DNA of 64,000 nucleotides from Maricaulaceae bacterium (GTDB taxonomy: Bacteria > Pseudomonadota > Alphaproteobacteria > Caulobacterales > Maricaulaceae): positions 368 through 64,367 of the forward strand of contig JBMYWT010000002.1 of assembly GCA_049607665.1 (NCBI GenBank), given 5' to 3'. The position numbers and the translations under genes were made by a program. Below, in pieces: positions 22,472 to 53,137 of this stretch (position 1 is the first letter of the stretch; each line of letters starts with the position of its first letter). The notes under the pieces were generated by a model, which did no database searches, was not told where the DNA came from, and saw nothing but the letters and a program-made list of their open reading frames with translations.

Positions 22472-22475
22472 TAGC

Positions 22476-22994: not shown

Positions 22995-23039
22995 AGGGGG
23001 CAGATAGGCGCGCGGCGGCGTCAGGTCAAGAGCGAGAGC

Positions 23040-23741: not shown

Positions 23742-23744
23742 GGG

Positions 23745-24809
23745 TTATCTACGCAATCCAGGGATTGTCGCCTGTACGAAATCAGCATCGGTAAGGTTTA
23801 TATTGATGCCAATCTCTTCGGTTATAATAGGACGAAAACTTTGGGCGGTGTAACCTCTATCTTCACAATATGTATTTCCGAGCGCTGAAAAGACACTTTC
23901 GCCAATACAAAATTCTTCGGGTTTGGAGACCACAGTACGCAGACGTTTGTCTTTTTGGAGTTTATCATCTGTGCTTGGTTGCTCTTGTAAGGCAAAGAAA
24001 TGTGCATCTAAGTCTTTTAAGGATTTGGTTATAGGGCGTTCGCACTCCGTTGGCTTTAAGGGCCACCACCCACGAGATTCCCATTGGCTTTCATTACGCA
24101 TTGCAATTGCAATCCAGGCCGTTTGGCTGGACTTGTTGCAAAGGCGGAGACCAATAGTTTCTTTGTGCTTTGCAGCGGCTGCAATGAGAGCATCGAATTT
24201 TTTATCTTTGGACAAAGATTTAGCAAGGTTATTGTCTTTTAGAAACTTTGAGAGAGTTTGCGTTGTTCGACGTCCTGAAAGGCCATCAACACGTGAAATT
24301 TTATATCCATTGTCTTGGAGTAATCTTTGGAGGCCTGCCGTTTCAGCTTTTTTTCCAAAACCATCTGTTTCTATTAGGCTTGTTATACGTTCAGAAGGGT
24401 CAACCTGTAAATAATCACGTTCTTGGAGGTTTTGTAAAGCGCAGCTAATATCAACGCTTGCTTTGAAGTCTTCATTACCGGTGCAGAGCGTAACATTGCC
24501 TTTCCATTCTCGAATTTTTCCAACATGCACAGTCGAACTCTCAGCATAAAGATACCGAGGCGTGCCTATAGGTAAGCTTTTTGTAAAACAGGCACCTGAT
24601 CGAATTTGTGTCCAACCTTCTGGCGAGACTTTTCCGTTAGAAAGTGATGCTGTTGCTACGCGAAGTACGAAAGAGGTTTCGTTACAAACTTGCCAATCAC
24701 TATTCGCATTTGAGTTTTCTGTACGCGTTTGGGCAGCTGTGGGGCCCACATTCGATATTATTGCAATGATGCCGACTATAAAACCGTGCCGTATTTTGGT
24801 TTTGATCAT
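23745..24809 (-). CDS. exported protein with two DUF1036-like modules flanking a peptidoglycan-binding-like segment
   Basis: Signal peptide. W.VCN.T and LCNKS...WIAIA modules resemble DUF1036. The central LQRLLQDNGYKISRVDGLSGRRTTQTLSKFLKDN resembles PG_binding_1. Confidence 0.6.
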   Translation of the reverse strand: MIKTKIRHGFIVGIIAIISNVGPTAAQTRTENSNANSDWQVCNETSFVLRVATASLSNGKVSPEGWTQIRSGACFTKSLPIGTPRYLYAESSTVHVGKIREWKGNVTLCTGNEDFKASVDISCALQNLQERDYLQVDPSERITSLIETDGFGKKAETAGLQRLLQDNGYKISRVDGLSGRRTTQTLSKFLKDNNLAKSLSKDKKFDALIAAAAKHKETIGLRLCNKSSQTAWIAIAMRNESQWESRGWWPLKPTECERPITKSLKDLDAHFFALQEQPSTDDKLQKDKRLRTVVSKPEEFCIGESVFSALGNTYCEDRGYTAQSFRPIITEEIGININLTDADFVQATIPGLRR

Positions 24810-25669
24810 CGTAAAAGCGTCCCAGCACCGTGATCGGTGAAAAGCTCGACAAGCAATCCATGCGCGCGACGGCCATCCAAAATGACAACGGCCCGAACGC
24901 CGTCTTCTACGGCATTAATAGCGGTTTCAATTTTGGGGATCATACCGCCGGTTGCTGTGCCATCTGCAATAAGATTACGTGCATCATCGAGGCTTAAGTT
25001 GGTAAGGAGGTTGCCTTCTTTGTCTTTCACGCCTTCGATATCGGTCAGAAGCATAAGCCGGGACGCGCCAATCGCAGCGGCAATCACGCCCGCAGCTGTA
25101 TCTGCATTTACATTATAAGAACCGCCTTTGGCTCCGCCGCTAATCGGGGAGATAACAGGAATAAATCCAAGATCTGATGCGACAAGGCCGTCTACAAGGC
25201 TGGTGTCCGTCGCGACAGGTTTACCCGCAAAGCCATGCGTCTCTGAGAGTTTTTGCGCCGTAATCAAATTGGCATCTTTACCAGAAATTCCGACGCCGCG
25301 CCCACCCGCCGCGTTAATCGCTTGGACGAGGGATTTATTAATTGCGCCAGAGAGGACCATTTCGGCCACTTCGACGGTTTCAATATCAGAAACACGCAGG
25401 CCATCGACAAATTCACTTTTGATCGAAAGACGCTTTAGCATTTCCCCGATTTGCGGGCCGCCGCCATGCACGATAACCGGCCGGATACCGAACTGCCGAA
25501 GGAGGACAACATCATTGGCAAATTGCCGCGTAAGCTCTTCGCTGCCCATGGCGTTGCCGCCAAATTTAATGACAATCGTTTGCTCAGCATAGCGCTGAAT
25601 AAAGGGGAGGGCTTCGGAAAGCGTCTTTGCGCTCTCCCAATTTATATCGTCTTTTCGGCGTTGTTCCAT
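24806..25669 (-). CDS. argB: acetylglutamate kinase
   Basis: LSEALPFIQRYAEQTIVIKFGGNAM, VHGGGPQI. The start was set at MEQRRKDD with AAGGGCGG upstream; the ORF is open to 25732. Confidence 0.9.
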   Translation of the reverse strand: MEQRRKDDINWESAKTLSEALPFIQRYAEQTIVIKFGGNAMGSEELTRQFANDVVLLRQFGIRPVIVHGGGPQIGEMLKRLSIKSEFVDGLRVSDIETVEVAEMVLSGAINKSLVQAINAAGGRGVGISGKDANLITAQKLSETHGFAGKPVATDTSLVDGLVASDLGFIPVISPISGGAKGGSYNVNADTAAGVIAAAIGASRLMLLTDIEGVKDKEGNLLTNLSLDDARNLIADGTATGGMIPKIETAINAVEDGVRAVVILDGRRAHGLLVELFTDHGAGTLLR

Positions 25670-25676
25670 GCCGCCC

Positions 25677-26348
25677 TTATAAACGATGATCCGGAAGAGC
25701 CAAGCTAGCAATCTCAGCTTTGAGCACATCAAGGCCGGTTTTTTTCACAGACGATGTTGGAATGATTGTCGGGAAGGCCGCGGGGCGTTTTGCAATCAGC
25801 TTAAGCGCGCGCTCTGTTTCTTTGGCAACAGCGGGCGGTTTGATTTTATCAACCTTTGTCATGACAAGTTGGTAGGTTACAGCGGCTTCATCGAGCATAT
25901 CCATAAGCTCTAGATCGGATTCTTTTACGCCGTGACGACTGTCGATCAGGATAAAGACGCGGCGTAATTGCGCGCGGCCACGTAGGAACGCTCGGGTGAG
26001 TTTTGTCCATTGGGCGATATCAACCTTGGAAGCGCGGGCATATCCATAACCGGGCAAGTCAACGACATAAAGGCGCTCGTCAATGTTAAAGTAATTCAGC
26101 TCTCGTGTGCGGCCCGGTGTGTTCGAGGCGCGGGCAAGTCCATTGCGATTGGTAAGCGCGTTAATCAAGCTTGATTTACCGACATTCGAACGCCCAGCGA
26201 AGCATACTTCCGGTGGCCCTGGGGGTGGTAGCGTTTGAAGGCTGACGGCGGAGCGCATGAAAGTTACGTCGCGCGCGAACAGCAGGCGTCCTTCATCTAA
26301 AAAGGGATGCGGCTCAACTTCGGTATTGTTTTCTGTATCTTCGCTCAT
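25677..26348 (-). CDS. yihA: ribosome-biogenesis GTP-binding protein YihA/EngB
   Basis: G1 GRSNVGKSSLINAL, G3 DLPGYGYA, G4 TKVDK. Confidence 0.9.
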   Translation of the reverse strand: MSEDTENNTEVEPHPFLDEGRLLFARDVTFMRSAVSLQTLPPPGPPEVCFAGRSNVGKSSLINALTNRNGLARASNTPGRTRELNYFNIDERLYVVDLPGYGYARASKVDIAQWTKLTRAFLRGRAQLRRVFILIDSRHGVKESDLELMDMLDEAAVTYQLVMTKVDKIKPPAVAKETERALKLIAKRPAAFPTIIPTSSVKKTGLDVLKAEIASLALPDHRL

Positions 26349-26368
26349 GTGAGACGTGAACCAGGGGC

Positions 26369-28135
26369 TTACGCCGCGTCTGGTTTTTCCTTGCCTGTTA
26401 TCTTGCGCCAGAACTGATCAACGGGCGTGTCGACCTTGAATTTACGCGTGATGTAATATTGCTGAATGAACGATAGGATATTGTTCCATACCCAATAGAC
26501 CAAAAGACCAGCGGCGAATGGCGCGAGGATGAACATAAACATCCACGGCATGAATTTCATCATTTTCGCCATCATTTCGGCTTGCTCTCCGCCACCAGCA
26601 TTTTGCGGCGTTAGCGTGTAAATTAATGACATGGAAATGCCGTAGAGAATCGCGAGCGGACCAATAGCCAAAAAGCTAAGCCCGAGCGGCGCGGCATCCC
26701 ATGGGAATAATCCAAAACCGTTTAATATTGAAAGCGGATCGCGCGCGGATAAATCTTGGATATACCCAAAGAAAGGTGCGTGGCGGAGATCGATATTGAT
26801 AAACACGGTTTTATAAAGTGAGAAGAACACGAAGATCGTTGGAATGATGGGCAGACACCCTGCCATCGGATTAACGCCTTCTTTCTTGTAAAGCGCCATC
26901 ATTTCCTGCTGAAGTTTCATACGGTCATCTTTGTAAAGCGCTTGCAGTTTCTTCTGCTTGGGCTGTACTTTTTTCATCATCGCTTGGCTGGCGTATTGCT
27001 TGTTGAAAAGCGGGAAAAGAACGATCTTGATAATCAATGTAAGCACTAAAATGCCGACGCCGTAATTGCCGATTTTTTCGCCGAGGAAGGTTAGAACCGT
27101 GCTCATAGGACGCGTAAGGATACGCATAGCACCCCAATCAATTGCGCGCTCCATTTGCATAATGCCAACTTCGTTTTCATAATTAAGGAGCGTTGTGCGG
27201 TCTTTCGGACCAGCAAAGACATGGCCGACACTTTCAATGGTTGTGCCCGGCGTGATGGTCATAGGGGTTGTGGAGTAACCCGTTTCATAGACCTCTTGCC
27301 CATTAATTTCGCGGTAAGCGAATTTAGTGGAAATGTTCTTACCTTGCGGCGCGATAGCCGCAGAGAGCCAATATTTATCGGTAAGACCAACCCAGCCGCC
27401 TTCGCCGCTATTGTTATGCTCGCCTGATTTACGCAGCTTTTTATATTTCATATCATCAAGTTTATTGTCGACGACTGAAATCGGGCCCTCTTGAATAATG
27501 AAGAAATTTGTTAATTCGTCAGGCAGGCCATGCTGGCGCGAAACGCCTTTACGCCGAAGGTTAATTTCATTGCCTGATGTGTTGGTGACTTTATCCGTTA
27601 GCGTGATGAGGTATTTATCATCGACTGAAACTGTACGCTCCACAACAAAGCCGTCGCCTTTGTGTTGTAATATGATAGGAGCGGTTTCTGTCAGGGTTGT
27701 TCCTGAGAGGCGCATCCATGGGCTGTTTGAGCCAGATCCACTATCTGCTTTTGTCCAATTATCAAAAATATAGGCAGATTTTTCCGCGCCCTCTGGCGTG
27801 AGCATGATGACCGTTTCGCTATCATCTTCTAAAGTTTGGTTGTAATTTTTAAGGCGGATATCGTCAAAGCGTGACCCAGAGAGGGAAAACGACCCTGATA
27901 GAGAGGCGGTATCGATCGTGATACGGTCGCCATCTGTGATGAGCGTTTCACGCGCAACAGGTTCTTTGATTTCAACAGCTGCCGGCGTCGGCATGGTACT
28001 TTCGGCGCTCGCGATTTCACTGGCGGCATCTACGCGGGCTTGTTCCGCCAAAGGTTTGCCAAAGAAAAACCAATATCCGAGCATAACAAAGCCGGAGAGA
28101 ACAATGGCGAGGATGAAATTCTTTTGATCGTCCAT
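26369..28135 (-). CDS. yidC: membrane protein insertase YidC
   Basis: 588 aa with an N-terminal TM, a large periplasmic domain and the conserved C-terminal core (GCLPIIPTIFVFFSLYK). Sits in the rpmH-rnpA-yidC-yihA order. Confidence 0.93.
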   Translation of the reverse strand: MDDQKNFILAIVLSGFVMLGYWFFFGKPLAEQARVDAASEIASAESTMPTPAAVEIKEPVARETLITDGDRITIDTASLSGSFSLSGSRFDDIRLKNYNQTLEDDSETVIMLTPEGAEKSAYIFDNWTKADSGSGSNSPWMRLSGTTLTETAPIILQHKGDGFVVERTVSVDDKYLITLTDKVTNTSGNEINLRRKGVSRQHGLPDELTNFFIIQEGPISVVDNKLDDMKYKKLRKSGEHNNSGEGGWVGLTDKYWLSAAIAPQGKNISTKFAYREINGQEVYETGYSTTPMTITPGTTIESVGHVFAGPKDRTTLLNYENEVGIMQMERAIDWGAMRILTRPMSTVLTFLGEKIGNYGVGILVLTLIIKIVLFPLFNKQYASQAMMKKVQPKQKKLQALYKDDRMKLQQEMMALYKKEGVNPMAGCLPIIPTIFVFFSLYKTVFINIDLRHAPFFGYIQDLSARDPLSILNGFGLFPWDAAPLGLSFLAIGPLAILYGISMSLIYTLTPQNAGGGEQAEMMAKMMKFMPWMFMFILAPFAAGLLVYWVWNNILSFIQQYYITRKFKVDTPVDQFWRKITGKEKPDAA

Positions 28136-28175
28136 GAGGGCGGCTTTCTATTCGGGCGTAAACTTGACTTTAAAT

Positions 28176-28568
28176 CTATATAGGAACGGTTTGCGCTTTG
28201 CGCGAGAGGCTTAACAGGGCTTTTTGCGTATCGTCAAGAAGCTGTTCGTAGGGGCGGCTGAGCGTACTGTCGCGGGCGATGAAAACATAATCATAACCCA
28301 GAAGGCCGTGATCGGGCAAAAGGGTGCGTGCCACTTCGCGCAAACGGCGTTTGGCGCGGTTACGGATAACCGCATTTCCAACCCGTTTTGTAGCCGTAAA
28401 GCCTACGCGAATGCTGATTTCAGGTTTTTTTTCACAGCCTATGGCGGGGTTTGCGCGCATTTGTACAACGACACCGCCAGAGGGCTTATAGATGCCGTCT
28501 CTGACATGCAAAAACTCGGACCGCTTTGTAAGGCGTCCGAGTTTTAATTTTTTTTCACTCTGGGTCAT
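28176..28568 (-). CDS. rnpA: ribonuclease P protein component
   Basis: Basic 130-aa protein with VGFTATKRVGNAVIRNRAKRRLRE (the RNR motif), directly downstream of rpmH. Confidence 0.85.
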   Translation of the reverse strand: MTQSEKKLKLGRLTKRSEFLHVRDGIYKPSGGVVVQMRANPAIGCEKKPEISIRVGFTATKRVGNAVIRNRAKRRLREVARTLLPDHGLLGYDYVFIARDSTLSRPYEQLLDDTQKALLSLSRKAQTVPI

Positions 28569-32110: not shown

Positions 32111-33532
32111 ATGGTTGACGGTCTTATTTCCCGGCGTCTTTCGGGTAAACTGCTACTCATGACAATTGGTTTTGTCATGCTAGCGGAGCTTTTGCTGTTT
32201 ATCCCATCGGCTACTGTTTTCCGGCAAGATTATATTGAAGAGCGCGCAGAACGGGCGGGCCATCTCGCGCTCGCATTAATGGGCGTGCCAGATTACGAAG
32301 GCAGCGAAATTCTCTCGCAAAAATTCATGAGCGACACGGATGTTATCATGGTGTCATCTAAGCATGACGGCATGTCGGAATTGATATTGGGTATGCCTCC
32401 GCATGACGGAGAATTTGACGTTGTCGATTTAAGAGTAGAGCGCCGCTTGCCAGGGTTTCGTTATGCGTTTGGTTCTTTTTTCGGAAGTGACCAAGGTTAT
32501 TTGCGGGTTTTGGCCAATCCTGTGATTGATACGCATGACGTAATTGAAATTATTTTGCCAAAGTCGTCTTTGAAAGAAGAGATGCGGGCCTATTTTGGAC
32601 GTGTTTTTTGGCTCTCGCTGCTTATTGCGATCGTTACAGGGGGCATGATTTACTTTGCTCTTTCTGCGATGATTGTACGTCCAATTAAACATCTTGCGGA
32701 TGGCCTCGCAGCTTTTCGCGAAGACCCAGAAAAGCGCCGCGCGGCTTTGCTGCCTTCTAGTCGCCGCGATGAAATTGGACGTCTAGAGCGTGAATTTTAC
32801 GATATGAAACAAAGCGTACGGGCCTCGTTCCAACAGCGCGAACGGCTTGCGTCGTTGGGCATGGCTGTTGCCAAAATAAACCATGACTTGAGGAATGTTT
32901 TAACCTCAGCGCAGCTTGTTTCTGATCGTATAGCAATGGATAAAGATGAACGTGTGGCCGTGATGGGTGAGCGCTTAGTCAGAGCCGTCGATCGCGGCAT
33001 TCGCTTGTGTAGTGATGTGCTAAGTTACTCGAAAGGCACGACAGACCCTGTTGAGATAGAGACTATCCGTATTGCGCTCTTAGTTGGCGAAGTTGCGGGT
33101 GATACTTTGGGGCAGTTCCGGCGCAATGATAAGCCCATAGAGTTTATCAATAAAATTCCAAGTGAATTGGCCGTAAGAGCGGATCCAGATGATGTCTACC
33201 GTATCATTCACAATCTTTTTCGGAATTCTGGCCAAGCAATACAAGGACGTTTTGTGGGGGTTGATGATGTTGAGCCGCCGGCAAGAATTATCGTTACGAC
33301 GAGTACGGAAGGCGGCGAAGTGAGACTGTCTGTGATGGATACGGGGCCAGGCCTACCGAAAAAGGCTTTGGATAACCTTTTTCAAGCTTTTACAGGCGGG
33401 ACAAGTCACGATAGTTCTGGACTTGGCCTTACGATATCGCGTGACCTTGCTCGGGATCAAGATGGCGAGCTTTCGCTCGCCCATACGGGGGCTGACGGTA
33501 CCGAATTTATTCTGACATTAAAAGCGGCCTGA
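32111..33532 (+). CDS. membrane sensor histidine kinase (HAMP-HisKA-HATPase); no adjacent response regulator
   Basis: Two TM segments, the HAMP-like IVRPIKHLADGLAAF, the H-box AKINHDLRNVLTSAQL, and the G-boxes DTGPGLP and GLGLTISRDLA. Confidence 0.85.
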   Translation: MVDGLISRRLSGKLLLMTIGFVMLAELLLFIPSATVFRQDYIEERAERAGHLALALMGVPDYEGSEILSQKFMSDTDVIMVSSKHDGMSELILGMPPHDGEFDVVDLRVERRLPGFRYAFGSFFGSDQGYLRVLANPVIDTHDVIEIILPKSSLKEEMRAYFGRVFWLSLLIAIVTGGMIYFALSAMIVRPIKHLADGLAAFREDPEKRRAALLPSSRRDEIGRLEREFYDMKQSVRASFQQRERLASLGMAVAKINHDLRNVLTSAQLVSDRIAMDKDERVAVMGERLVRAVDRGIRLCSDVLSYSKGTTDPVEIETIRIALLVGEVAGDTLGQFRRNDKPIEFINKIPSELAVRADPDDVYRIIHNLFRNSGQAIQGRFVGVDDVEPPARIIVTTSTEGGEVRLSVMDTGPGLPKKALDNLFQAFTGGTSHDSSGLGLTISRDLARDQDGELSLAHTGADGTEFILTLKAA

Positions 33533-36203: not shown

Positions 36204-37697
36204 GTGCCTGTAGATTATAATTCCAACGCCGCCACGAATGCTCATGAATATTCGGTCTCCGAATTGGCGCAGACGCTCAAGCGCACAATCGAAGACACAT
36301 TCGGCCATGTCCGCGTGCGCGGGGAACTGGGCCGCGTAACGATTGCTAAATCAGGCCATTGTTATTTGGACGTCAAAGACGACAAAGCGGTAATTAATTC
36401 CATCATCTGGAAAGGCCAAATGAGCCGCCTGTCGATGCTACCCGAAGAAGGCATGGAAGTCATTTGCGAAGGTAAGTTGACGACATATCCTGGGCGGTCG
36501 AACTATCAGCTCGTGATCTCCAAAATGGAACTGGCGGGCGCAGGCGCGCTCATGGCGCTGTTTGAGAAACGCAAAACAATGCTTGCCGCCGAAGGTCTGT
36601 TCGATCAGGCGCGTAAGGTTGAATTGCCTTTCATGCCGAAAACCATCGGTGTTGTTACTTCGCCGACTGGTAGCGTGATCCGCGATATTCTGCACCGCAT
36701 AGAAGACCGCTTCCCGTCGCACGTGCTGGTTTGGCCCGTGTTAGTGCAGGGCGATAAGGCGGCGGCGCAAATTGCGGGCGCGATTACAGGGTTTAATCAT
36801 GCCGAAGGGTTCCCGCGTCCTGATGTTCTCATCGTCGCGCGCGGCGGTGGATCGCTCGAAGATTTATGGTGTTTCAACGAGGAAGTCGTGGTGCGCGCTG
36901 CGGCGGCGTCAAATATTCCGTTAATTGCAGCGGTAGGCCACGAAACCGATTGGACATTAATTGACTATGCCGCCGATTACCGCGCGCCAACACCTACGGG
37001 CGCAGCCGAAGTTGCGGTCCCTGTGCGCGCCGATTGGCTTACGACGCTGGAAGATTACGGCCTGCGCCTGACGCGGGGGTTACAGCGTAATACGCGAGAG
37101 AAAACAGCGCGTTTATCAGGCGCGCGCCTGCCACGATTGGATACAGTCTTGGCCGCGCCGCGTCAGCGTTTGGATTTGGCGGTGTCTAAACTCCCGAGCC
37201 TGACGAATTTGTTTTCCGCCAAGGCCCACAGGTTACAGCTCGCGAAACTCCCGCCCTTGGGCCGCATCACCGAACGTCCCGCACAGCGCCTGCACAACAT
37301 TTCAATGCGTTTACGTCCGACGACGATTCAACACAAACACAGCCACCTTGAAACGGCGCTCTCAGGATTATCCCGCAGAGCCAACACACAAATGAAAACG
37401 CAACTCGAAGGCCGCCAAGCGCGGTTGGAGCGGGCAGGTAAATTGCTCACGGCCTATAGCTACCAAGGCGTCCTCGAACGCGGCTTTGCGATTGTTCAAG
37501 ATGCGGACGGCGGAGTCGTGAAAACAGGCGCTGAATTATCCTCCGGGCAGGGCGTGGAACTTGTGTTTGCGGACGGGCATCGCAGCGCGGTTATTGACGG
37601 CGAAGGCGCGATTGCGCCACTAAAAGTTAAGCCGAAAACCAAACCCAAAAAAGCAAAACCGCCCGCCGCTAATACGGCTCAGGCGGATTTGTTCTAA
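36204..37697 (+). CDS. xseA: exodeoxyribonuclease VII large subunit
   Basis: The OB-fold N-terminus YSVSELAQTLKRTIEDTFGHVRVRGEL, IGVVTSPTGSVIRDIL, and ARGGGSLEDLWCFN. Confidence 0.9.
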   Translation: MPVDYNSNAATNAHEYSVSELAQTLKRTIEDTFGHVRVRGELGRVTIAKSGHCYLDVKDDKAVINSIIWKGQMSRLSMLPEEGMEVICEGKLTTYPGRSNYQLVISKMELAGAGALMALFEKRKTMLAAEGLFDQARKVELPFMPKTIGVVTSPTGSVIRDILHRIEDRFPSHVLVWPVLVQGDKAAAQIAGAITGFNHAEGFPRPDVLIVARGGGSLEDLWCFNEEVVVRAAAASNIPLIAAVGHETDWTLIDYAADYRAPTPTGAAEVAVPVRADWLTTLEDYGLRLTRGLQRNTREKTARLSGARLPRLDTVLAAPRQRLDLAVSKLPSLTNLFSAKAHRLQLAKLPPLGRITERPAQRLHNISMRLRPTTIQHKHSHLETALSGLSRRANTQMKTQLEGRQARLERAGKLLTAYSYQGVLERGFAIVQDADGGVVKTGAELSSGQGVELVFADGHRSAVIDGEGAIAPLKVKPKTKPKKAKPPAANTAQADLF

Positions 37698-37746
37698 ATT
37701 GAAATTCAATCCCTATAAATTGCAATCAATACCCAGTTAAACCGCA

Positions 37747-37920
37747 GGTCATACAGTATTCAACTCTAGGTCATACAGCACAACCCAGAGTCATACAGCA
37801 TTCTTACAGCATCTATACAGCATTGATGCAGTATCTTTACAGCACGCGTACAGCATTGTGAACGCATCCTTGCAGCATGATGAACGCATCTTTACAGTAT
37901 AAAGACAGCATTTGCTGCCA
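37747..37920. repeat. degenerate tandem array: three units of about 21 bp, then eleven 11-bp units (consensus ACAGCATYTTT)
   Basis: The core [AG][AC][AC]G[CT]A sits at 37753, 37775 and 37795, and then at every 11 bp from 37795 to 37905. The region is non-coding, between the xseA stop (37697) and the sahR-like start (38010). Confidence 0.85.
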
Positions 37921-38009
37921 AATCGATTCGTTAAATCAGCATATAAAGAAAATAGCATATAAAAATTTTGTTATATCTTTTTGTGTAAAGTTATGCTACG
38001 TCTCCGCGC

Positions 38010-38972
38010 ATGGAAAATATTGCGCAAATTCTCAAAGTCCTCGGCCATCCAGAACGTCTCCGTATTTTGGCGCTTCTCTCGCGCGGCGAACTTACAGTCA
38101 GCGAGCTTGTCCAAATCATGGAGCTTAGTCAGCCGCGCATGACGCAATATATCAACTCGCTCGAAAAGGCGGGAATCATTGAACGCCTCAAAGAAGGCAG
38201 TTGGGTGTTCTCACGTTTGCGCCGGGGCAATGCTGCTGTTACGGCTCTTGTGGCAACGACGCTTAGCGCTCTGCCGGAAAGTGACGAGATGTTGCAATCC
38301 GATTTGGCCCGCCTTGAAGATGTTCGCGCTGAGCGCTCTAAGGCCGCCGAAGCCTTCTTTGCTAATGTCGCCAATGACCGAGGGCAACTTGGCCATGAAT
38401 ACCTGCCGCAGGATGATATTGAACGCGCCATGACGGCCGCCGTCGGTGATGGCCCATTTGATTTCATGGTCGATTTGGGCACAGGTACGGGCCGCGTACT
38501 TTCTGTGTTTGCGGATAAAATCACGCGCGGGTCGGGCATCGATAATAATACTCAAATGTTAAAAGTCGCGAGGCATAAACTCGCCTCCGAAGGCCATGAC
38601 CATATTTCTGTACGCCAAGGGAATTTGCTGAACGTCCCGCTAGAGACAGGCTGCGCCGATCTTGTGACCATCCACCAAGTGTTGCATTATTTGGATGACC
38701 CAAGCGAGGCCATCACAGAGGCCGCGCGCCTCTTGCGTCCCGGTGGGCAGCTTTTGATTGTCGATTTTGAAACGCATACCCTTGATGAGTTCCGCGAAAC
38801 TTACGCCCATCGCCGCCTTGGTTTTACCGACCAAGATCTGGGGCAATGGCTGGGGGAACATAACCTGCGGCTCGCGCCGTCGACCTTGATACAATCAAGC
38901 GACGCCAAGCGGCCCAATGTTAAAATTTGGTCGGCGCGCCTTCCGCGTTTCCCTGCCTATAAAGAGGCTTAA
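38010..38972 (+). CDS. sahR: ArsR-type wHTH regulator fused to a SAM-dependent-methyltransferase-like domain (SahR-like)
   Basis: The N-terminal ArsR HTH is LKVLGHPERLRILALLSRGELTVSELVQIMELSQPRMTQYINSLEKAGII. The C-terminal MTase fold is VDLGTGTGR...LRPGGQLLIVDF. The gene lies immediately upstream of metF, as in described SahR loci. The gene name is inferred from architecture and context. Confidence 0.72.
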   Translation: MENIAQILKVLGHPERLRILALLSRGELTVSELVQIMELSQPRMTQYINSLEKAGIIERLKEGSWVFSRLRRGNAAVTALVATTLSALPESDEMLQSDLARLEDVRAERSKAAEAFFANVANDRGQLGHEYLPQDDIERAMTAAVGDGPFDFMVDLGTGTGRVLSVFADKITRGSGIDNNTQMLKVARHKLASEGHDHISVRQGNLLNVPLETGCADLVTIHQVLHYLDDPSEAITEAARLLRPGGQLLIVDFETHTLDEFRETYAHRRLGFTDQDLGQWLGEHNLRLAPSTLIQSSDAKRPNVKIWSARLPRFPAYKEA

Positions 38973-38975: not shown

Positions 38976-39932
38976 ATGGGACTACAGGCCCGCACACATA
39001 GCCCCAACAGCCCCGCGTCCTTGCGTAGTCTCGGCCCCGTCGCGCGCATGGCGGGATCGCGTTCTGACCACGTCAAAGTCAGCTATGAGTTCTTCCCCCC
39101 GAAGAATAAAAAGACCGAAGAGACGCTCTGGGATTGCATCACAAAGCTTGAACCGCTCTCGCCCGATTTCGTCTCAGTTACATATGGCGCAGGCGGTTCA
39201 ACGCGCGAACGCACCCACCGCACGGTCACAAGAATTGCAAACGAGACAAACCTCAAACCCGCCTCGCACCTCACTTGCGTCGGCGCGAGCCGAGGTGACA
39301 TTGACGCCATCGCGGATGAATATTGGGCGGCGGGCATTCGCCACATCGTCGCGTTGCGGGGCGACTCGCCAGACGGTATCGACCAAGCCTATACGCCGCA
39401 TGAAACAGGCTATGCTTACGGCTCTGATTTGGTCGCGGGGCTAAAGGCGCGCCACGATTTTGAAGTCTCCGTCGCCGCCTATCCCGACCGCCACCCAGAG
39501 AGCGGGAACTGGAGCGCAGAGATTGACAATTTGAAACGCAAGGTCGATGCGGGCGCCAACCGCGCGATCACGCAGTTTTTCTTCTCTGCGGAAACCTTTC
39601 TGCGCTACCAAGACCGTATCGCGGACGCAGGCATCGACATCACATTAGTGCCGGGATTAATGATGCAGCCCAATTTCGCAGGGCTACAACGCATGAGCAA
39701 AATGTGCGGCGTCACCGTTCCCGATTGGTACGCCGAATTGTTCGAAGGTCTCGACGCGGACACCAACGCACGGCAGCTCCTAACGGCAGCCCTGACATCG
39801 GAACTCACCGCGCAACTCTATGATGAAGGCGTCAATCACTTCCACCTCTACACGCTAAACCGCCCCGACATCGCCGTGGCGGTGAGCCGGGTTGTGGGGT
39901 TGCACACAAGGCGTAAGGCATTAGTGGGTTAG
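38976..39932 (+). CDS. metF: 5,10-methylenetetrahydrofolate reductase
   Basis: VSYEFFPPK, FVSVTYGAGGSTRERT, HLTCVG, ALRGD and the FFFSAETFLRY motifs. AAGAGG lies upstream of the ATG at 38976; an internal start at 39048 is possible. Confidence 0.9.
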   Translation: MGLQARTHSPNSPASLRSLGPVARMAGSRSDHVKVSYEFFPPKNKKTEETLWDCITKLEPLSPDFVSVTYGAGGSTRERTHRTVTRIANETNLKPASHLTCVGASRGDIDAIADEYWAAGIRHIVALRGDSPDGIDQAYTPHETGYAYGSDLVAGLKARHDFEVSVAAYPDRHPESGNWSAEIDNLKRKVDAGANRAITQFFFSAETFLRYQDRIADAGIDITLVPGLMMQPNFAGLQRMSKMCGVTVPDWYAELFEGLDADTNARQLLTAALTSELTAQLYDEGVNHFHLYTLNRPDIAVAVSRVVGLHTRRKALVG

Positions 39933-39943
39933 TTCCAATTTCA

Positions 39944-40064
39944 CCTCATCCTGAGGCGCAGGCGAAGCCTGCGGGACTCGAAGGATTGGTATAGTTCGCG
40001 AGCTTCATTCTCACCATTCGCCCGAACCCTTCGAGACGGCGCAAAGCGCCTCCTCAGGATGAGG
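39944..40064. repeat. REP/MITE-like nested palindromic element
   Basis: The 13-bp perfect arms CCTCATCCTGAGG (39944-39956) and CCTCAGGATGAGG (40052-40064). The inner arms are CTCGAAGG (39977-39984) and CCTTCGAG (40028-40035). Each arm has its own small hairpin (CGCAGGCgaaGCCTGCG, GGCGCaaaGCGCC). Confidence 0.6.
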
Positions 40065-40152
40065 GCTTAGTTTGGTATTAAGTTTGTAACAAACTTTCTA
40101 TCGCCGTTGAGATAAATGCGAGAACGACGGAGCAAAACTAGCATCAAACTCT

Positions 40153-40239
40153 CCCGCTCATCCCAGACTTGATCTGGGATCTCCTTGTGGCGGGCTTTAC
40201 TCTTCCTAAGATCCCAGCTTCTGCAGGGATGAGCGCGGG
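40153..40239. repeat. second REP/MITE-like nested palindromic element
   Basis: The 10-bp arms CGCTCATCCC (40155-40164) and GGGATGAGCG (40226-40235). The inner 8-bp arms are CTGGGATC (40174-40181) and GATCCCAG (40210-40217). There is a hairpin CCCAGActtgaTCTGGG (40162-40178). Confidence 0.55.
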
Positions 40240-40304
40240 GTGGGGAGGTGTCTTGCAACGCATAAAATTTTGGCTTTTTGCGGGGAAGAGTGTAGGCTAT
40301 TTTT

Positions 40305-40886
40305 ATGACAAATTTTTCGCAGGCAAAACATCAGACACATAAAGAAAGCCTGTGGCGGTTTTTGGCTTTGATCGGAATTTTGGCGACTTATTTTTTCTAT
40401 ATGAGCTGGAAGTTTGATGCGGCCACGGGAGCGTGGCTGGCGGTGCTCAGTTGGAGCTTTTTTGTGCTGTGTACGCCCGTCGCGGACGGCGGGTTTATTG
40501 TGGCGTTTCCTGTGCGACTTTTGTTTGGCGCGCGTATGCTTATTACGCAAATTGTGGTGTGGGTTGTCGCGATTGCCGTGAATATCGCGGGGCTTAATCT
40601 CTCACCTGAGAGCTACCAAGATACGGCGCTGACGCGCTTGCTAGCCACGATCCTAACGACGCCGTGGCCCTATTGGAGTATCCTGCTGATATCTGCGGCG
40701 GGGACGGGGCTTTCGATTTGGTTTGGCGATGAAATGATGGATGTGACCACGCATGAAAACAGAGATAAATATCACGCGCATGGGTTCAAACATAAGGGGA
40801 TTGTGATCTTGGCCCTCGGCGTTTTGACGGTACTGGCCTATTATCAATTGCTCCGTGATTTGGGCGTGAAAATCCCAGGCGCATAG
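40305..40886 (+). CDS. hypothetical polytopic membrane protein
   Basis: 193-aa ORF with about 5 hydrophobic helices. I recognise no family. It ends 7 nt before the DUF1704 gene. Confidence 0.55.
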   Translation: MTNFSQAKHQTHKESLWRFLALIGILATYFFYMSWKFDAATGAWLAVLSWSFFVLCTPVADGGFIVAFPVRLLFGARMLITQIVVWVVAIAVNIAGLNLSPESYQDTALTRLLATILTTPWPYWSILLISAAGTGLSIWFGDEMMDVTTHENRDKYHAHGFKHKGIVILALGVLTVLAYYQLLRDLGVKIPGA

Positions 40887-40893
40887 GGCGGCT

Positions 40894-46958: not shown

Positions 46959-47153
46959 CGGGGTCTCTTTTCGCGTGCATTGAATATATCTAGGCGCTGT
47001 CTATCTGCGCGCGCACGGCTGTTCAAGAGGGGGGCGGCAATTTAACTTTGCGGGGTGAAATTTTCGTGACTTGCCGAGGTTCGCAACTCACTATATATCG
47101 CCGAAATAATAATGCGCGAATCATGCGCGGCTGAGTTTTTTATGGGGGCCGTT

Positions 47154-47585
47154 ATGGCGACGAAAAAGAAAGCTAAAGCAGTTGTTGTTCCAGACGGCTA
47201 TGCGCCCTCGGATGACGAAGAATTTATGAATCCCGTTCAGACGCTCTATTTTAAAAACAAGCTTTTGGCGTGGAAAGAAGATTTGGTTGAGCAAACCAAA
47301 GAGACGATCAACTACCTTCAGGGCGAGAATGTATCGCATCCTGATCCTGTGGATACGGCGGCGGCCAATGCGGATCGCCAACTGGAGCTACGGTCTCGGG
47401 ATCGCCTGCGTAAGTTGTCCGCTCAGATTGATAAAGCCCTGCGCCGCGTTGAAAACGGCACATATGGCTATTGCGAGGAAACAGGTGATCCGATCCGTGT
47501 TGGCCGTCTTGACGCCCGCCCCATCGCCAAAATGTCCCTCGAAGCGCAAGAGATGCATGAACGCGCTGAGAAAACTCGCAAATAA
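47154..47585 (+). CDS. dksA: RNA polymerase-binding transcription factor DksA (one-cysteine type)
   Basis: A coiled-coil with the DxxDxA tip (PDPVDTAAANADRQLEL) and a C-terminal YGYCEETGDPIRVGRLDARPIAKMSLEAQ. Only the first of the four zinc-finger cysteines is present. The start is uncertain (47112, 47142 or 47154). Confidence 0.86.
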   Translation: MATKKKAKAVVVPDGYAPSDDEEFMNPVQTLYFKNKLLAWKEDLVEQTKETINYLQGENVSHPDPVDTAAANADRQLELRSRDRLRKLSAQIDKALRRVENGTYGYCEETGDPIRVGRLDARPIAKMSLEAQEMHERAEKTRK

Positions 47586-48461: not shown

Positions 48462-49250
48462 TTAATTTCGTACGGATGTGAGCCAAGTTTTGGGTGTCAT
48501 GCCATAGGTTTTTTTGAATTGTCGTCCAGAATGACTTTGGTCGGAAAAGCCACAATTTACAGCCGTCCTCGCCAAGGTGTCTCCAGAGAGCAACATTGAG
48601 CGGGCTTGTTCTAATCTTCGTAGGGTTTTGTATCTGTAAGGACTTGTTCCAAACGCGGCTCGAAAGTCTCTGGATAACTGCCATCGATCTTGCCTTGAAA
48701 CATGCTCAAGGTCATCCAATGTTAGATCGTCATCAAGAGTTTCATCTATGTAACGGCGGGCGATTTCGGCCGCTTTATAATTAAAGATCTGCTTCGTGGA
48801 ATGTTGCCCCGATAAAGTGCTCAGGGTTGTTGCCAGATCATAGATCGCATCTTGGCATTGAAGATTGCTCAAAGGCGTTTCAAAGTCACAGAGCAAGGGT
48901 GTCAGTATCGCCCATAGCCGCGTGTCAAAAGATACTCCGCCTTTGATAAAAGGGAGAGCTTGGCCTCTCAAAACCCCCTGTATCGCGGAGGGGCGTATGT
49001 ATAACGTTTTATATCTGAAGCCTTCATTCGTACCAGCGCGGCCATCATGCAATTCGTCCGGGTGTAAAATAACCATTTGACCAGGTTGGGAATGCATAGT
49101 CGCGCCCCGATAATCAAATGTTTGGATGCCATGAAGCGTTACGCCGACGGCATAAGTGTCATGGCGGTGCGGTGTATAGGCCGCCCCATGAAAAGAGCCT
49201 TCCAGACGATCCAGAAATCCTGGAGCTCGTGATACCCAGTTTTTTTCCAT
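48462..49250 (-). CDS. AraC-family transcriptional regulator
   Basis: An N-terminal cupin-like sensor (HRHDTYAVGV...ILHPDELHDG) and a C-terminal double HTH (...IAVNCGFSDQSHSGRQFKKTYGMTP). Confidence 0.85.
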   Translation of the reverse strand: MEKNWVSRAPGFLDRLEGSFHGAAYTPHRHDTYAVGVTLHGIQTFDYRGATMHSQPGQMVILHPDELHDGRAGTNEGFRYKTLYIRPSAIQGVLRGQALPFIKGGVSFDTRLWAILTPLLCDFETPLSNLQCQDAIYDLATTLSTLSGQHSTKQIFNYKAAEIARRYIDETLDDDLTLDDLEHVSRQDRWQLSRDFRAAFGTSPYRYKTLRRLEQARSMLLSGDTLARTAVNCGFSDQSHSGRQFKKTYGMTPKTWLTSVRN

Positions 49251-49455: not shown

Positions 49456-51300
49456 TTATTTGCTCGCGACCCATGCGTCGACGCGTTCTTCTAGGATGCT
49501 AAGCGGGACGGGGCCGGAGGCTAGGACGACTTCGTGATATTCGCCGAGGTCAAACTTTTCGCCAAGCTTTTCTTTGGCTTCTTCGCGAAGGTGCTGAATT
49601 TTGATCATGCCGATCTTATAGGCTGTCGCTTGGCCGGGCATAACGATGTAGCGCTCTGTGGCTTTGACGATATCGGACAGGGCGTTGGGCGTGTTCTCTA
49701 CGTGATAATCAATGACTTGCTCGCGCGTCCATTTTTTATCGTGAAGGCCCGTATCAACGACGAGGCGAACCGCGCGCCAAAGCTCCATGGAAAGTCGTCC
49801 GAAATCGGAATAGGGATTAGAATAAAAACCCATCTCTTTGGGGAGGAATTCTGAGTACAGACCCCAGCCTTCGGTATAGGCCGTCACGCCGCCATATTTG
49901 CGGAATTTAGGCACGTTCTCTAGCTCTTGCGAAATCGAGAGCTGCATGTGGTGGCCCGGAATGCCTTCGTGATAGGCGAGGGCTTCCATTTGGTATTTCG
50001 GCATGGCTTTGATGTCATAGAGATTGGCGTAGTAAATGCCGGGGCGAGAGCCATCGGGCGCGGGGCGATTATAGAACGCTTTGCCCGCAGATTTCTCGCG
50101 GAAGGCCTCAACGCGGCGCACATCAAGCTCGGCTTTAGGTAGGCGCTTGAACACTTCGGGGAGGCGCTCTTTCATCGTGTTAATCATATCGGTGGCATCG
50201 GCCAAATAGGCGTCGCGGCCCGCATCGCTATCTTCATATGTGAACTGCGGATCGGTGAGCAAATATTTGAAAAACTCTTGCAGCGTGCCTTCAAATCCAA
50301 CCTTTGTCATAATGGCGCGCATTTCATTTTGAATGCGTTCAACTTCGGCAAGGCCAAGGTCGTGAATTTCATCCGCGCTCATATCGGTCGTCGTAATCAT
50401 GCCTAGGCGGTATTTATAAAAGGCCTCACCATCAGGAAGTTTCCAAACGCCGTCATCTGTAGTGGACGTTGCTTTTTGTGTTTCCATCACAGAGATAAGG
50501 TTCTCATAGGCCGGAAGCACAGAGGTCATAAGCGCGCTTACCGCGTCGGCCGTAAGCTGTTTTTGTGTTTCCGCATCAAGCTCTAGTGATGCAATTTTTT
50601 TCTGGATGTCGCCCAAGAGCAAGCTTGGCTCTTCCGTGTCTTCAAAGGGCGCGCCTGTGATAATGTTTTGGGCGTCGCGAATAACGTGATCGAAGACAAA
50701 TGTCGGCGGGATTATGCCTTTCTCGGCAGAGACTTTGGCGCGCGCCACATAGCCGTCCATCGCGTCTTTCATGCCTTCGAGGCGGGCAATGTAATCGCGC
50801 GCATCTTGTTCGTCGGCAACGCGGTGGAAGTTAAGCATAAAGGTGGCCATGCCGCTTTGGCGTCCGCCCATTTGGTTGAACGGATAGCCATGGTAAAACC
50901 ACTTGTCGCTATCGATGCCATTTTTCAGGTCACGCTCAAATAAGCGGTAAGAGAGCTGATGATCTTCGTCCATTTTCGCCATGTCAAACGTGCTGCTAAG
51001 CTCAGCAAGGGTGGCTTTGGCGGCCTCAACTTGCGCCAGCGCAAATTCACGGCTGGGATCATTCCATTCTGTCGTGCGCTTTTTAATGCCCAAAAACGCC
51101 ATGGACTCTGGGTAGTTCGCAACTTCGCTTTGGAATTGTTCTTCGAGCCAATTGTCAAAGCGCTTGTTCTCTGCGTCTTGAGAAACTTCGGCGGCGGGCG
51201 CGGCCATCGTCTCTTGCGCGGCTTCCATAGCGGTTTTGCCGTCATTCTGACAGCCGGATAGAATTAACGCCGTGCTGGCGAGTAAAAGAAGTTTTTTCAT
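49456..51300 (-). CDS. DUF885-family lipoprotein (putative metallopeptidase-like)
   Basis: Lipobox MKKLLLLASTALILSGC. Conserved EAFYNRPAPDGSRPGIYYANL and YHEGIPGHHMQ. The start was set at MKKLL (51300); the ORF is open to 51342. Confidence 0.85.
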   Translation of the reverse strand: MKKLLLLASTALILSGCQNDGKTAMEAAQETMAAPAAEVSQDAENKRFDNWLEEQFQSEVANYPESMAFLGIKKRTTEWNDPSREFALAQVEAAKATLAELSSTFDMAKMDEDHQLSYRLFERDLKNGIDSDKWFYHGYPFNQMGGRQSGMATFMLNFHRVADEQDARDYIARLEGMKDAMDGYVARAKVSAEKGIIPPTFVFDHVIRDAQNIITGAPFEDTEEPSLLLGDIQKKIASLELDAETQKQLTADAVSALMTSVLPAYENLISVMETQKATSTTDDGVWKLPDGEAFYKYRLGMITTTDMSADEIHDLGLAEVERIQNEMRAIMTKVGFEGTLQEFFKYLLTDPQFTYEDSDAGRDAYLADATDMINTMKERLPEVFKRLPKAELDVRRVEAFREKSAGKAFYNRPAPDGSRPGIYYANLYDIKAMPKYQMEALAYHEGIPGHHMQLSISQELENVPKFRKYGGVTAYTEGWGLYSEFLPKEMGFYSNPYSDFGRLSMELWRAVRLVVDTGLHDKKWTREQVIDYHVENTPNALSDIVKATERYIVMPGQATAYKIGMIKIQHLREEAKEKLGEKFDLGEYHEVVLASGPVPLSILEERVDAWVASK

Positions 51301-51301
51301 C

Positions 51302-53137
51302 TTATTCCCCTCTGGTCTTGCTGGCGGTCCAATCCGCGACAAGTTCTTCTAAGATAGTGAGCGGAACAGAACCGCTCGCGAGTATAACGTCGTGAAATTC
51401 TCTTATATCGAATTTCTCGCCAAGTTCTAGCTCCGCATTTTTGCGAAGTTCTTGGATTTTAAGCATGCCAATTTTATAGGCCGTAGCCTGACCAGGCCAG
51501 ACGATATAGCGGTCAATTTCCGCGCGGACGTCGCCTTCGGGATTTGGGATATTATCAAGATAATATTGCACGGCCTCTTCGCGCGTCCACTTTTTGGCGT
51601 GAATACCTGTGTCTACGACAAGGCGCGCGGCGCGGAAAATCTCCATAGAGAGTCGCCCGAAATCCATATAGGGATCTGTGTAAAGGCCAAGTTCCTTGGG
51701 CACGCTTTCGGAATAAAGCGCCCAGCCTTCAACATAACTCGTGTGTCCGCCAAGCGTTCGAAATTTGGGAAGGCCTTGAAGCTCCATCGCTATGGCGATC
51801 TGCATATGATGCCCCGGAATGCCTTCATGATAGGCGAGGGCCTGCATGAGATATTTAGGCTGATCTTTAATGTCGCGCAGATTGATATAATATGTACCGG
51901 GGCGGGAGCCATCTAGCGCGGGTTGATCATAAAACGCGCCAAAGGCGGTGTCTTCGCGAAAGGCCTCAACGCGTTTAACGATCATATCGGCTTGGGGCTT
52001 GGTGATAAACAAATCATCAAGCTGCGCTTTCATCTCGTTAATCATCGCCGTGGCATCGGCAATATAGGCGGCGCGTCCGGCGTCATCGTCAGAATAGACA
52101 AATTTGGGATCTGTGCGCAGGTGATCGTAAAAAGCCTTTAAGTCGCCTTCAAAGCCCACTTGGGTCATGATGGCGCGCATTTCGTCTTGGATGCGAGCAA
52201 CCTCTTTTAGGCCAATTTCATGAATTTCATCTGCGGTTAGATCGGTTGTAGTATAGTGCTTCAGGCGGGCTTGATAAAACTCGGCCCCCTTGGGGAGCTT
52301 CCACGCCCCGTCATCTGCGCTGCTGCTTTCTTTGTGGCGCGTGAAGAGATCGATCAGATTTTCATAGGCTGGCCCGACATGTTCGGTTAACGCCGCATTT
52401 GCGTCTTGGATAAGCGCAGTTCTCTCGTCATTACTGAGTTCAATACGTTCAATCTTGGATTTGAAATCTGCCAATAGTGGGCTGTCTTCACCATCGGTAA
52501 ACGGGCGGCCTTTGATGATGTTTTCTGCTGTGGGCGTGATTTTGTCATAAACAAATTTGGGGAGGGAAACGCCGGCTTCAAATTGTGCTTCGGCTTTATC
52601 CGCCATTTGCCCAAGATAGGCATCAAATTCAGATAGGCGGGCAATGTAATCTTCGGCGTCAAATAGGCTGTCGATGGCGTGAAAGTTGATCATGAATGTC
52701 GGCAGATCAGAATGCGGGCCACTCATATGTTCAAAAATATATTGATGATCGCTATAGGCGTGGGACGAAAGCTGATCTTCGGCGTCATGTTCAAACAGGC
52801 GGTAAGAAAGCGCGGTCTGCGCGTCGAGGCGATTGAGGTCAAAACGCTCGCGCATCTCAAACAGCCATTGCTGCGTTAGGGCCGCGTCTTCGTCATTCGC
52901 CATTTGTGAGACGTCGTCAAGAAAACTCGCCGCACCTTTCTCTCCGTAATAAGTTTGGAGCATCGGTGAGCGCGTAAGGTCATCTTGAAATCGTTCTTCA
53001 AGCCAATCGTTAAGTGCGGCGCTCTCATTGACTATTAACTCCGCTTCACTTGTTTGTTGCGCGCTGGGGGCTTCACAGGCTGATAAAAGAAAAGCGGCTG
53101 TTAAGCATGAGGATATCAGGAGAGTTGTGATGCGCAT
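51302..53137 (-). CDS. DUF885-family lipoprotein, tandem paralogue
   Basis: Lipobox LLSAC. It is collinear with the downstream copy (GAFYDQPALDGSRPGTYYINL, YHEGIPGHHMQ). Its stop lies 1 nt from the start of the next copy. Confidence 0.85.
   Translation of the reverse strand: MRITTLLISSCLTAAFLLSACEAPSAQQTSEAELIVNESAALNDWLEERFQDDLTRSPMLQTYYGEKGAASFLDDVSQMANDEDAALTQQWLFEMRERFDLNRLDAQTALSYRLFEHDAEDQLSSHAYSDHQYIFEHMSGPHSDLPTFMINFHAIDSLFDAEDYIARLSEFDAYLGQMADKAEAQFEAGVSLPKFVYDKITPTAENIIKGRPFTDGEDSPLLADFKSKIERIELSNDERTALIQDANAALTEHVGPAYENLIDLFTRHKESSSADDGAWKLPKGAEFYQARLKHYTTTDLTADEIHEIGLKEVARIQDEMRAIMTQVGFEGDLKAFYDHLRTDPKFVYSDDDAGRAAYIADATAMINEMKAQLDDLFITKPQADMIVKRVEAFREDTAFGAFYDQPALDGSRPGTYYINLRDIKDQPKYLMQALAYHEGIPGHHMQIAIAMELQGLPKFRTLGGHTSYVEGWALYSESVPKELGLYTDPYMDFGRLSMEIFRAARLVVDTGIHAKKWTREEAVQYYLDNIPNPEGDVRAEIDRYIVWPGQATAYKIGMLKIQELRKNAELELGEKFDIREFHDVILASGSVPLTILEELVADWTASKTRGE

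Follow-up and report, generated by a model that had tools for sequence, protein, structure and literature searches.

In Streptomyces, PhoP recognises operators built of 11-nt direct-repeat units in which the first 7 positions are conserved and the last 4 are variable; at least two units are needed, binding is severely impaired when 1 nt between units is deleted, and occupancy spreads cooperatively from strong to weak units (PMC2275107). Plasmid R1 carries in its parC region ten direct repeats of 11 bp, to each of which a ParR dimer binds; the cooperative complex formed on this curved DNA doubles as an operator (PMC2241845). Here, we analyse an array of comparable architecture located between xseA and the sahR-metF operon in a 64,000-nucleotide stretch of DNA (the window) from a metagenome-assembled genome of a Maricaulaceae bacterium. 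The array, composed of eleven contiguous 11-bp units with the core word ACAGCAT, bears the marks of purifying selection and may serve as a cis-element for a DNA-binding protein.

Tandem recognition words of other kinds have also been described. Metboxes, the short tandem repeats upstream of methionine and S-adenosylmethionine (SAM) genes that successive MetJ dimers read cooperatively, are palindromes of 8 bp (AGACGTCT), with 2-5 of them in a row. The direct-repeat operators of some GntR-family regulators contain two or three repeats, and the low-affinity DnaA arrays of E. coli oriC, with about 4 sites each, consist of 9-mers lying 2 bp apart (an 11-bp period) in the same orientation, which guide oligomer growth on one face of the DNA. 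MetJ motifs have been treated as tandem repeats in comparative work, which found MetJ orthologues only in gamma-proteobacteria and described the SahR motif as a 20-bp palindrome (PMC4239095). The GntR-family direct-repeat operators of NagQ (TGGTATT), NanR (TGGTATAW) and FarR carry a 7-8-bp non-palindromic word in tandem (PMC4494728).

The array occupies positions 37795-37915 of the plus strand, where its eleven units follow one another in exact register and in one orientation throughout. Units 1-6, counted from 37795, read ACAGCATTCTT, ACAGCATCTAT, ACAGCATTGAT, GCAGTATCTTT, ACAGCACGCGT and ACAGCATTGTG, and units 7-11 read AACGCATCCTT, GCAGCATGATG, AACGCATCTTT, ACAGTATAAAG and ACAGCATTTGC; the register breaks after 37915. 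On the distal side, longer GGTCATACAGYA units stand at 37747, 37769 and 37789 (GGTCATACAGTA, GGTCATACAGCA and AGTCATACAGCA, respectively), the third of which doubles as unit 1 of the main array. Their cores start at 37753, 37775 and 37795, hence at spacings of 22 and 20 bp, i.e., two helical turns, and the distal units score 11.5 and 11.1 with the position weight matrix (PWM), the level of the units within the array. These positions, including all eleven slots and the three upstream units, had been proposed in a first-pass annotation made by a model from the letters alone, and every one of them was verified in the sequence. Tandem Repeats Finder reported periods of 11 and 22 at the array with scores of 49, 72 and 70, the only rows above 40 in the window, and a repeat search recovered 9 copies spaced by 11 or 22. 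The degenerate core RMMGYAY occurs 197 times in the window on both strands, and at this frequency an 11-slot run would be expected by chance about 1e-26 times.

Information content divides the unit into two parts. In the 20 units available from the window and its relative L001 (see below), core positions 1-7 carry 1.25-2.0 bit each, with G4 and A6 of ACAGCAT invariant in 20/20 units, and spacer positions 8-11 carry 0.07-0.56 bit. The low information of the last four positions indicates that the real unit is a 7-bp core followed by a 4-bp variable spacer, mildly T-rich at unit positions 10-11. The consensus ACAGCATYTTT given previously is therefore retained for its ACAGCAT part, and its YTTT part is weak. 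The units of the window match the consensus at 68/77 core and 21/44 spacer positions (Fisher p = 2.7e-6), and 10/11 spacers are distinct. Each unit amounts to a word of ~11-12 bits, which, being non-palindromic and of constant orientation, is typical of a monomer site or a half-site.

The closest SahR relative with usable upstream DNA is L001, a metagenome contig from an independent assembly of another sample (run ERR13858653), with SahR 79% and MetF 91% identical to those of the window and synteny over sahR-metF and the downstream genes. It carries the array in the same place (L001:3-101), with nine units that keep the 11-bp register exactly; the contig stops within the array, short of the position of the distal GGTCATACAGYA units. 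Conservation at the xseA/metF junction was a check proposed in the first-pass annotation, and the finding of the array upstream of sahR in a close relative also removes the suspicion of mis-assembly. The units of the two loci pair one-to-one (common are, e.g., ACAGCATTGAT-GCAG... and ACAGTATAAA(G/C)-ACAGCAT), and within the array their lengths differ by a single complete 11-bp unit and nothing else: L001 lacks unit 6 of the window. The consensus is matched in L001 at 58/63 core and 18/36 spacer positions (Fisher p = 3.6e-6).

The comparison of orthologous units revealed differences at 6/63 core positions (9.5%) versus 15/36 spacer positions (42%; p = 2.9e-4), distributed along the unit as 0,2,2,0,1,0,1 (core) and 5,4,3,3 (spacer); after correction for the choice of the best 7-column frame, the contrast retains p = 0.0026. 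The 4-fold degenerate sites of the neighbouring sahR and metF, taken as the neutral yardstick, differ between the two loci at 151/297 positions (51%). The core has thus changed ~5 times more slowly than these sites (p = 1.9e-10), whereas the spacers are indistinguishable from them (p = 0.38). Within the 121-bp array there are zero indels of 1-5 bp, while the adjacent gap between the array and the SahR box (36-41 bp) is barely alignable and differs by 5 bp in length. The slow core, the neutral spacers and the restriction of indels to a whole unit demonstrate that the word and its one-helical-turn spacing are under purifying selection and that the spacers are neutral. The previous argument that a degenerate yet register-perfect array implies selection on phasing is therefore backed by both the core/spacer contrast and the whole-unit indel.

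The closest likeness is to the PHO box of Streptomyces. The array shares its defining layout (11 nt, tandem, same-orientation, 7 conserved and 4 variable positions) and likewise mixes strong and weak units, but its word, ACAGCAT (reverse complement ATGCTGT), is not the GTTCACC of Streptomyces. The PHO word of E. coli and other proteobacteria is CTGTCAT, with which the reverse complement of the array word shares CTGT only, the conserved frame being shifted by 3 nt. Moreover, PHO operators comprise 2-6 (at most ~8) units, in contrast to 11 contiguous and 3 distal ones here, and the array ends ~40 bp upstream of the operator and presumed promoter, would thus not replace the -35 region, adjoins a SAM-cycle operon as its presumed target and has been linked to no response regulator. 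With parC it shares the number and length of the iterons, eleven 11-bp units against about ten. However, the iterons of parC form two blocks, five on either side of the par promoter, beside parM-parR on a plasmid, and the array is a single block of 11 among chromosomal housekeeping genes, with no partition genes in the annotated parts of the window and no similarity to plasmid records. Metboxes resemble the array as short tandem repeats upstream of methionine/SAM genes but differ from it in unit length, word and number. The GntR operators have another word, and there is no GntR gene nearby; the DnaA arrays of oriC differ in that ACAGCAT lacks similarity to the DnaA box and the locus lacks an origin context.

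The type of architecture is therefore known, and each specific family departs from the array in at least one of the defining features tested (the word, the par/rep genes with their layout, or the palindrome). What is new is the 7-bp word, the unusually long uninterrupted run, the SAM-cycle target and the restriction to one uncultured marine lineage. Within the scope of our literature search, no described element has this unit, as was stated previously, although the 7 + 4 architecture of 11-bp direct repeats is well known.

The operator of SahR itself was located by aligning the upstream regions of nine sahR loci (the window, L001 at 138-157, L002, L003, L005, L006, L007, L246 and L247). A palindrome, ATATAA-N8-TTATAT, is invariant ~33 bp upstream of the sahR start codon in 9/9 of them and is evidently the SahR operator of this family. 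It is separated from the end of the array by 41 bp in the window and 36 bp in L001. A direct repeat lies just before it, and the second copy of this repeat overlaps the left half of the palindrome and is out of register with the array; it may represent a second, partial SahR half-site. Judged by word, symmetry and position, the array is distinct from the SahR operator.

The best reading of these data, to which we attach about even confidence, is that the array is a lineage-specific, head-to-tail, same-face protein-binding cis-element on double-stranded DNA. A non-palindromic word of constant orientation repeated eleven times at one-turn intervals, with neutral spacers and distal sites two turns apart, is the signature expected of a polymerising protein that uses one major groove per protomer on a single helix face. 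We infer the binding of a protein, its type or fold and the regulatory outcome and its sign from this arrangement. The array would offer a sequence-specific DNA-binding protein, with a footprint of no more than one helical turn, an unbroken row of at least eleven recognition sites in one orientation, plus three sites two turns apart. The protomers would read ACAGCAT in successive major grooves on one helix face and would assemble cooperatively, head to tail, in the manner of winged-helix regulators of the OmpR/PhoB type on 11-nt direct-repeat units or of ribbon-helix-helix ParR dimers on 11-bp parC iterons. The resulting nucleoprotein filament would end ~40 bp upstream of the SahR operator and promoter and, given its position upstream of this conserved pair, would most likely act as a second, steeply cooperative input to the sahR-metF (SAM-cycle) operon besides SahR. 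Alternatively, the filament could insulate sahR-metF from xseA read-through, a role made possible by the lack of a detectable intrinsic terminator 3' of xseA, before the array. The cooperative protein-binding platform of the first-pass annotation thus gains support from the comparative selection data, though not with SahR as its binder.

Several observations weigh against this reading. Array carriers are the window and L001 only, both loci of the closest clade that have upstream DNA, and the array is absent upstream of sahR in eight more distant loci (Fretibacter rubidus and seven metagenomic ones, SahR 72-78% identical). The PWM scan of the 64-kb window found no further pair or triplet of units above shuffled controls, and the absence of a second site with the same word means that there is no sign of a regulon in the window. 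No OmpR-type regulator, ribbon-helix-helix or partition protein was found in the annotated parts of the window, the open reading frames (ORFs) of 13240-28568 and a few others being unscanned. All eleven sites are fairly strong by PWM, which speaks against a simple-activator form of the reading, as do the lack of a candidate regulator gene in the annotated parts of the window and the promoter distance given next, and known response-regulator operators reach 6-8 units (PMC2275107), far fewer than 11 contiguous strong sites. The centre of the SahR palindrome lies 61.5 bp from the last core in the window versus 56.5 bp in L001, and this half-turn difference speaks against rigid, face-of-helix contact between the array and the promoter complex. 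Finally, units 7 and 9 both carry the derived variant AACGCAT, which points to some ongoing unit turnover or conversion.

A more ambitious form of the protein-binding reading is that the array is the operator of a formerly unrecognised regulatory input into the SAM/methionine cycle in a lineage of marine alphaproteobacteria, a filament of more than 11 turns acting as an ultrasensitive switch or a boundary upstream of the SahR-controlled promoter. We consider this doubtful. If true, it would make the array the functional analogue of MetJ on metbox arrays, with another word, another period and probably another protein fold, and, among contiguous operators phased at one turn, the longest known from a bacterial chromosome.

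Among the other explanations, one keeps the protein and gives up the regulation: the array could be a centromere-, iteron- or titration-type platform coated by a ribbon-helix-helix or similar protein in the service of, e.g., segregation, pairing, handcuffing or the buffering of free regulator, its adjacency to sahR being incidental. In unit length and number (11 bp, 11 + 3) it is closest to parC of R1 with its ten 11-bp iterons and one ParR dimer on each, and parC has also been described as curved (PMC2241845), while the DNA adjoining the array is predicted to be strongly curved in a wedge model, a tentative result. Every unit is a fairly strong site, unlike those of graded transcription-factor operators, and the half-turn difference in promoter distance between species suggests no stereospecific link to the promoter. 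Together with the lack of a regulator gene in the annotated parts of the window, these features keep an architectural, centromere-like or titration reading alive. Nevertheless, we regard it as unlikely: the array adjoins the housekeeping genes xseA, sahR and metF and not parM/parR, parA/parB, tubZ/tubR or a rep gene, the other annotated parts of the window are ordinary chromosome, the parC layout with repeats on both sides of a promoter is missing, and blastn of the whole intergenic region found nothing meaningful in 72,556 plasmids or 50,697 phage records.

The array could also work as RNA, in an xseA 3' untranslated region, a read-through transcript or a small RNA of its own, in which the CAGCAU or antisense AUGCUGU words titrate an RNA-binding protein, as the first-pass annotation had suggested. 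Read-through is plausible in view of the missing terminator between the xseA stop codon and the array, and the word is strand-asymmetric. For the plus strand, practically no RNA structure is predicted (z = -0.87), as would be expected of a protein-binding track; the minus strand gave z = -2.24, and neither fold is notable. On the other hand, the Rfam 15 covariance models gave 0 matches at the gathering threshold in the window and chance-level ones only at E <= 10 in 37600-38100, and a promoter scan found no promoter-like site. In known RNA sponges such as CsrB or the targets of TRAP, the distance between sites can vary, and here it is fixed at exactly one DNA helical turn, with a whole unit as the only indel. 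The distal units at two turns also fit same-face DNA binding better. RNA titration is decidedly unlikely on this evidence. A terminator-like hairpin on the minus strand (37919-37904) was rejected, as it is not kept in L001 and lies within the count expected from shuffles.

According to a third explanation, the array is a functionless old minisatellite, produced by 11-bp slippage at the xseA/sahR rearrangement junction and now decaying, its register being a product of whole-unit slippage. Its confinement to one shallow clade at a lineage-specific gene junction fits this, as do signs of turnover: blocks 6-7 and 8-9 are mutually 82% identical, units 7 and 9 share their variant, and one unit separates the window from L001. 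Furthermore, 11-bp satellites with ACAGCAT are common in public data. Neutral decay, however, predicts equal divergence over the 11 positions, instead of a core that differs far less than the spacer even after frame correction and evolves well below the rate of 4-fold sites at which the spacers evolve. Gene conversion would homogenise the spacers, which are nearly all distinct here versus 1-3 spacer types in each of the ACAGCAT-containing satellites, among the matches listed; this heterogeneity argues against simple concerted evolution. The absence of small indels next to a gap of some 40 bp that changed its length points the same way. The core-versus-spacer contrast largely refutes a minisatellite, which we hold to be very unlikely.

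That the array is an auxiliary low-affinity platform for SahR, carrying its repression upstream, is suggested by its place directly upstream of the autoregulated sahR and by the direct repeat at 37933-37963, which puts CAGCAT/TAGCAT words beside the left half of the palindrome. SahR, however, recognises a 20-bp palindrome (PMC4239095), represented in the nine loci by the invariant box, to which ACAGCAT is unrelated; the array consists of direct rather than inverted repeats, and SahR orthologues 72-78% identical operate with the palindrome alone. SahR as the binder, as proposed previously, is therefore highly improbable. Bent DNA made independently of protein by phased T-tracts, as an upstream promoter element, is scarcely credible: the spacers are mildly T-rich at positions 10-11 and the neighbouring 37661-37821 is the most curved stretch of the window in the tentative wedge model, but the array itself, with an end-to-end/contour ratio of 0.94, lies at the 19th percentile of window tiles and does not differ from within-unit shuffles (0.963 +/- 0.024; phased A-tract control 0.46-0.69), selection falls on the ACAGCAT word and not on the T-rich spacer, and an 11-bp period drifts from the 10.5-bp helix phase over 11 units, so that the bend put forward in the first-pass annotation finds no support in the curvature prediction.

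The array is neither coding, nor a known RNA, nor predicted to be intrinsically curved. A coding repeat was rejected, since the 55-aa minus-strand ORF over the array has stops in every frame of L001 and an 11-bp indel would shift the frame. A UzcR site does not fit, as the literature gives CATTAC-N6-TTAA for it and not a CATACA-type direct repeat. A Rho-utilisation site was rejected by inference, the conserved word having no YC dinucleotide and C being only modestly more frequent than G. By-eye comparison with the sequence showed no fit to sigma-54, LexA (GTTC-N7-GTTC), CtrA (TTAA-N7-TTAA), the DnaA box or Tn7-type end repeats, and clustering of CcrM GANTC sites was rejected with only 2 sites. 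Plasmid or chromid replication iterons (17-22-bp repeats beside a rep gene, an AT-rich element and DnaA boxes) are not matched either: there is no rep gene nearby, the main unit is 11 bp, with only the distal units at 20-22 bp, and plasmid and phage records gave no match.

The distribution of the array was followed from both of its flanking genes and in public collections. In the sahR loci that lack it, the upstream neighbour of sahR is DUF885, a glycoside hydrolase, an acyl-CoA dehydrogenase, rplU or a YHS protein; the contig of L005 (SahR 81% identical) ends 64 bp upstream of sahR and is too short to be informative. Nor is the array present 3' of xseA in five relatives with XseA <=73% identical and other downstream genes. 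Its presence in the closest clade and its absence from more distant sahR and xseA relatives mark the array as young and bound to the xseA/sahR junction of a single lineage. A tandem pair of DUF885 genes lies in the window at 49456-53137, and in Fretibacter rubidus (L002) DUF885 stands directly upstream of sahR; this placement suggests that the lineage of the window rearranged the neighbourhood as xseA came next to sahR. A relative 72% identical carries, directly downstream of xseA, a long perfect G+C-rich palindrome resembling a repetitive extragenic palindrome (L244:1611-1700), so that an intergenic repeat of another kind occupies this position in that lineage.

Public genome contigs were scanned with RCAGCAY-N4 x3 and metagenome contigs with ACAGCAT-N4-ACAGCAT-N(4-26)-ACAGCAT. 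Among the matches listed, both scans returned homogeneous 11-bp satellites or chance coding matches, none of them orthologous to the window locus, and a scan of viral contigs returned homogeneous satellites only. Two loci, L221 (eukaryote-like) and L168 (a DnaA-box cluster), appeared to have variable spacers and were rejected as unrelated to the array. The L168 cluster (Ga0315905_10002826, L168:10640-10790), in which DnaA-box-like TTGTCCACA/TTATCCACA repeats are interleaved with ACAGCAT words beside a homopolymer C run, is probably a plasmid or phage replication origin. Two independent short-read assemblies of the closest relatives break at or near the array, inside it at L001:1 and ~45 bp downstream of its expected end at L005:1. 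Fragmentation of assemblies by the repeat may explain why few copies are visible in public data.

The coordinates of the features at the junction are collected in Table 1. The gene order, purD(-), xseA(+), a 312-bp intergenic region, the SahR-type regulator gene(+) and metF(+), agrees with the xseA / sahR-metF context assigned in the first-pass annotation and was borne out by profile annotation of the neighbours. The SahR-type protein and XseA each have a 100% identical counterpart annotated as coming from a Maricaulaceae bacterium metagenome-assembled genome. The intergenic region has a G+C content of 37.5% versus 51% for the window. The curvature results of the wedge model are tentative; in it, the tiles at 37661-37821, which span the xseA stop, the TAAATTGMAAT repeats and the GGTCATACAGYA units, score 0.69-0.73 versus a window mean of 0.96 and include the most curved 121-bp stretch of the window.

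Table 1. Features of the xseA/sahR-metF junction in window coordinates.
Feature	Position	Strand	Evidence or description
xseA (exodeoxyribonuclease VII large subunit)	36204..37697	+	TIGR00237, E = 1.3e-126
AT-rich stretch right after the xseA stop	37698..37746	.	holds a TAAATTGMAAT repeat spaced 21 bp
Distal extension of the array	37747..37800	+	three longer GGTCATACAGYA units, (G/A)GTCATACAGYA, at 37747, 37769, 37789
Main array	37795..37915	+	eleven 11-bp units: 7-bp core ACAGCAT + 4-bp variable spacer
Direct repeat AAATCAGCATATAAA / AAAATAGCATATAAA, 16 bp apart	37933..37963	+	repeat search; copies at 37933-47 and 37949-63
SahR operator (evident), 20-bp palindrome ATATAAAAATTTTGTTATAT (ATATAA-N8-TTATAT), 33 bp before the sahR ATG	37957..37976	.	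invariant columns, 9 upstream regions
sahR-type regulator (ArsR/SmtB helix-turn-helix + SAM-methyltransferase-like domain), first gene of the sahR-metF operon	38010..38972	+	profile matches
metF (methylenetetrahydrofolate reductase), 4 bp past sahR	38976..39932	+	TIGR00676, 308 bits

Other features of the window are recorded here for completeness. The divergent purD and xseA, taken as their longest ORFs, share 105 bp (36204-36308); profile matches begin at residue 60 of purD and residue 17 of xseA, so that the start codons of both genes have probably been placed too far 5' and this interval holds the true divergent promoter region. The C-terminus of XseA (37620-37697) forms a lysine/proline-rich tail (…KVKPKTKPKKAKPPAANTAQADLF), and basic tails in relatives are similar but variable (e.g., L248:3150-3219). 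The slot between metF and the QEGLA/MATCAP gene contains unrelated DNA in the window (39933-40893) and L001 (2109-3040), which are otherwise syntenic: a 193-aa ORF with no family match in the former (40305-40886) and a 264-aa Cys-rich minus-strand ORF with no Pfam match in the latter; the slot looks like a variable insertion point. An orphan histidine kinase and a hybrid histidine kinase-receiver are encoded at 32111-33532 and 53302-55884, with no DNA-binding response regulator adjoining either, and the window also encodes an AraC-family regulator (48462-49250) and a DksA homologue (47112-47585).

The evolutionary evidence that the array has a function is strong and its length is exceptional, while the general principle is already established. 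With only two uncultured genomes known so far to carry the element, its practical impact is limited. By comparison alone, the combination of a conserved word, neutral spacers and whole-unit indels tells functional phased arrays apart from the ordinary 11-bp satellites abundant in metagenomes. If a protein coats the track, the array would offer a clean case from nature for the construction and upkeep of a long run of monomer sites in exact phase, and its 7-bp word could be used to find the other targets of the regulator. It would also mean that in marine Maricaulaceae-type bacteria a second regulator is layered on the SahR control of the SAM cycle.

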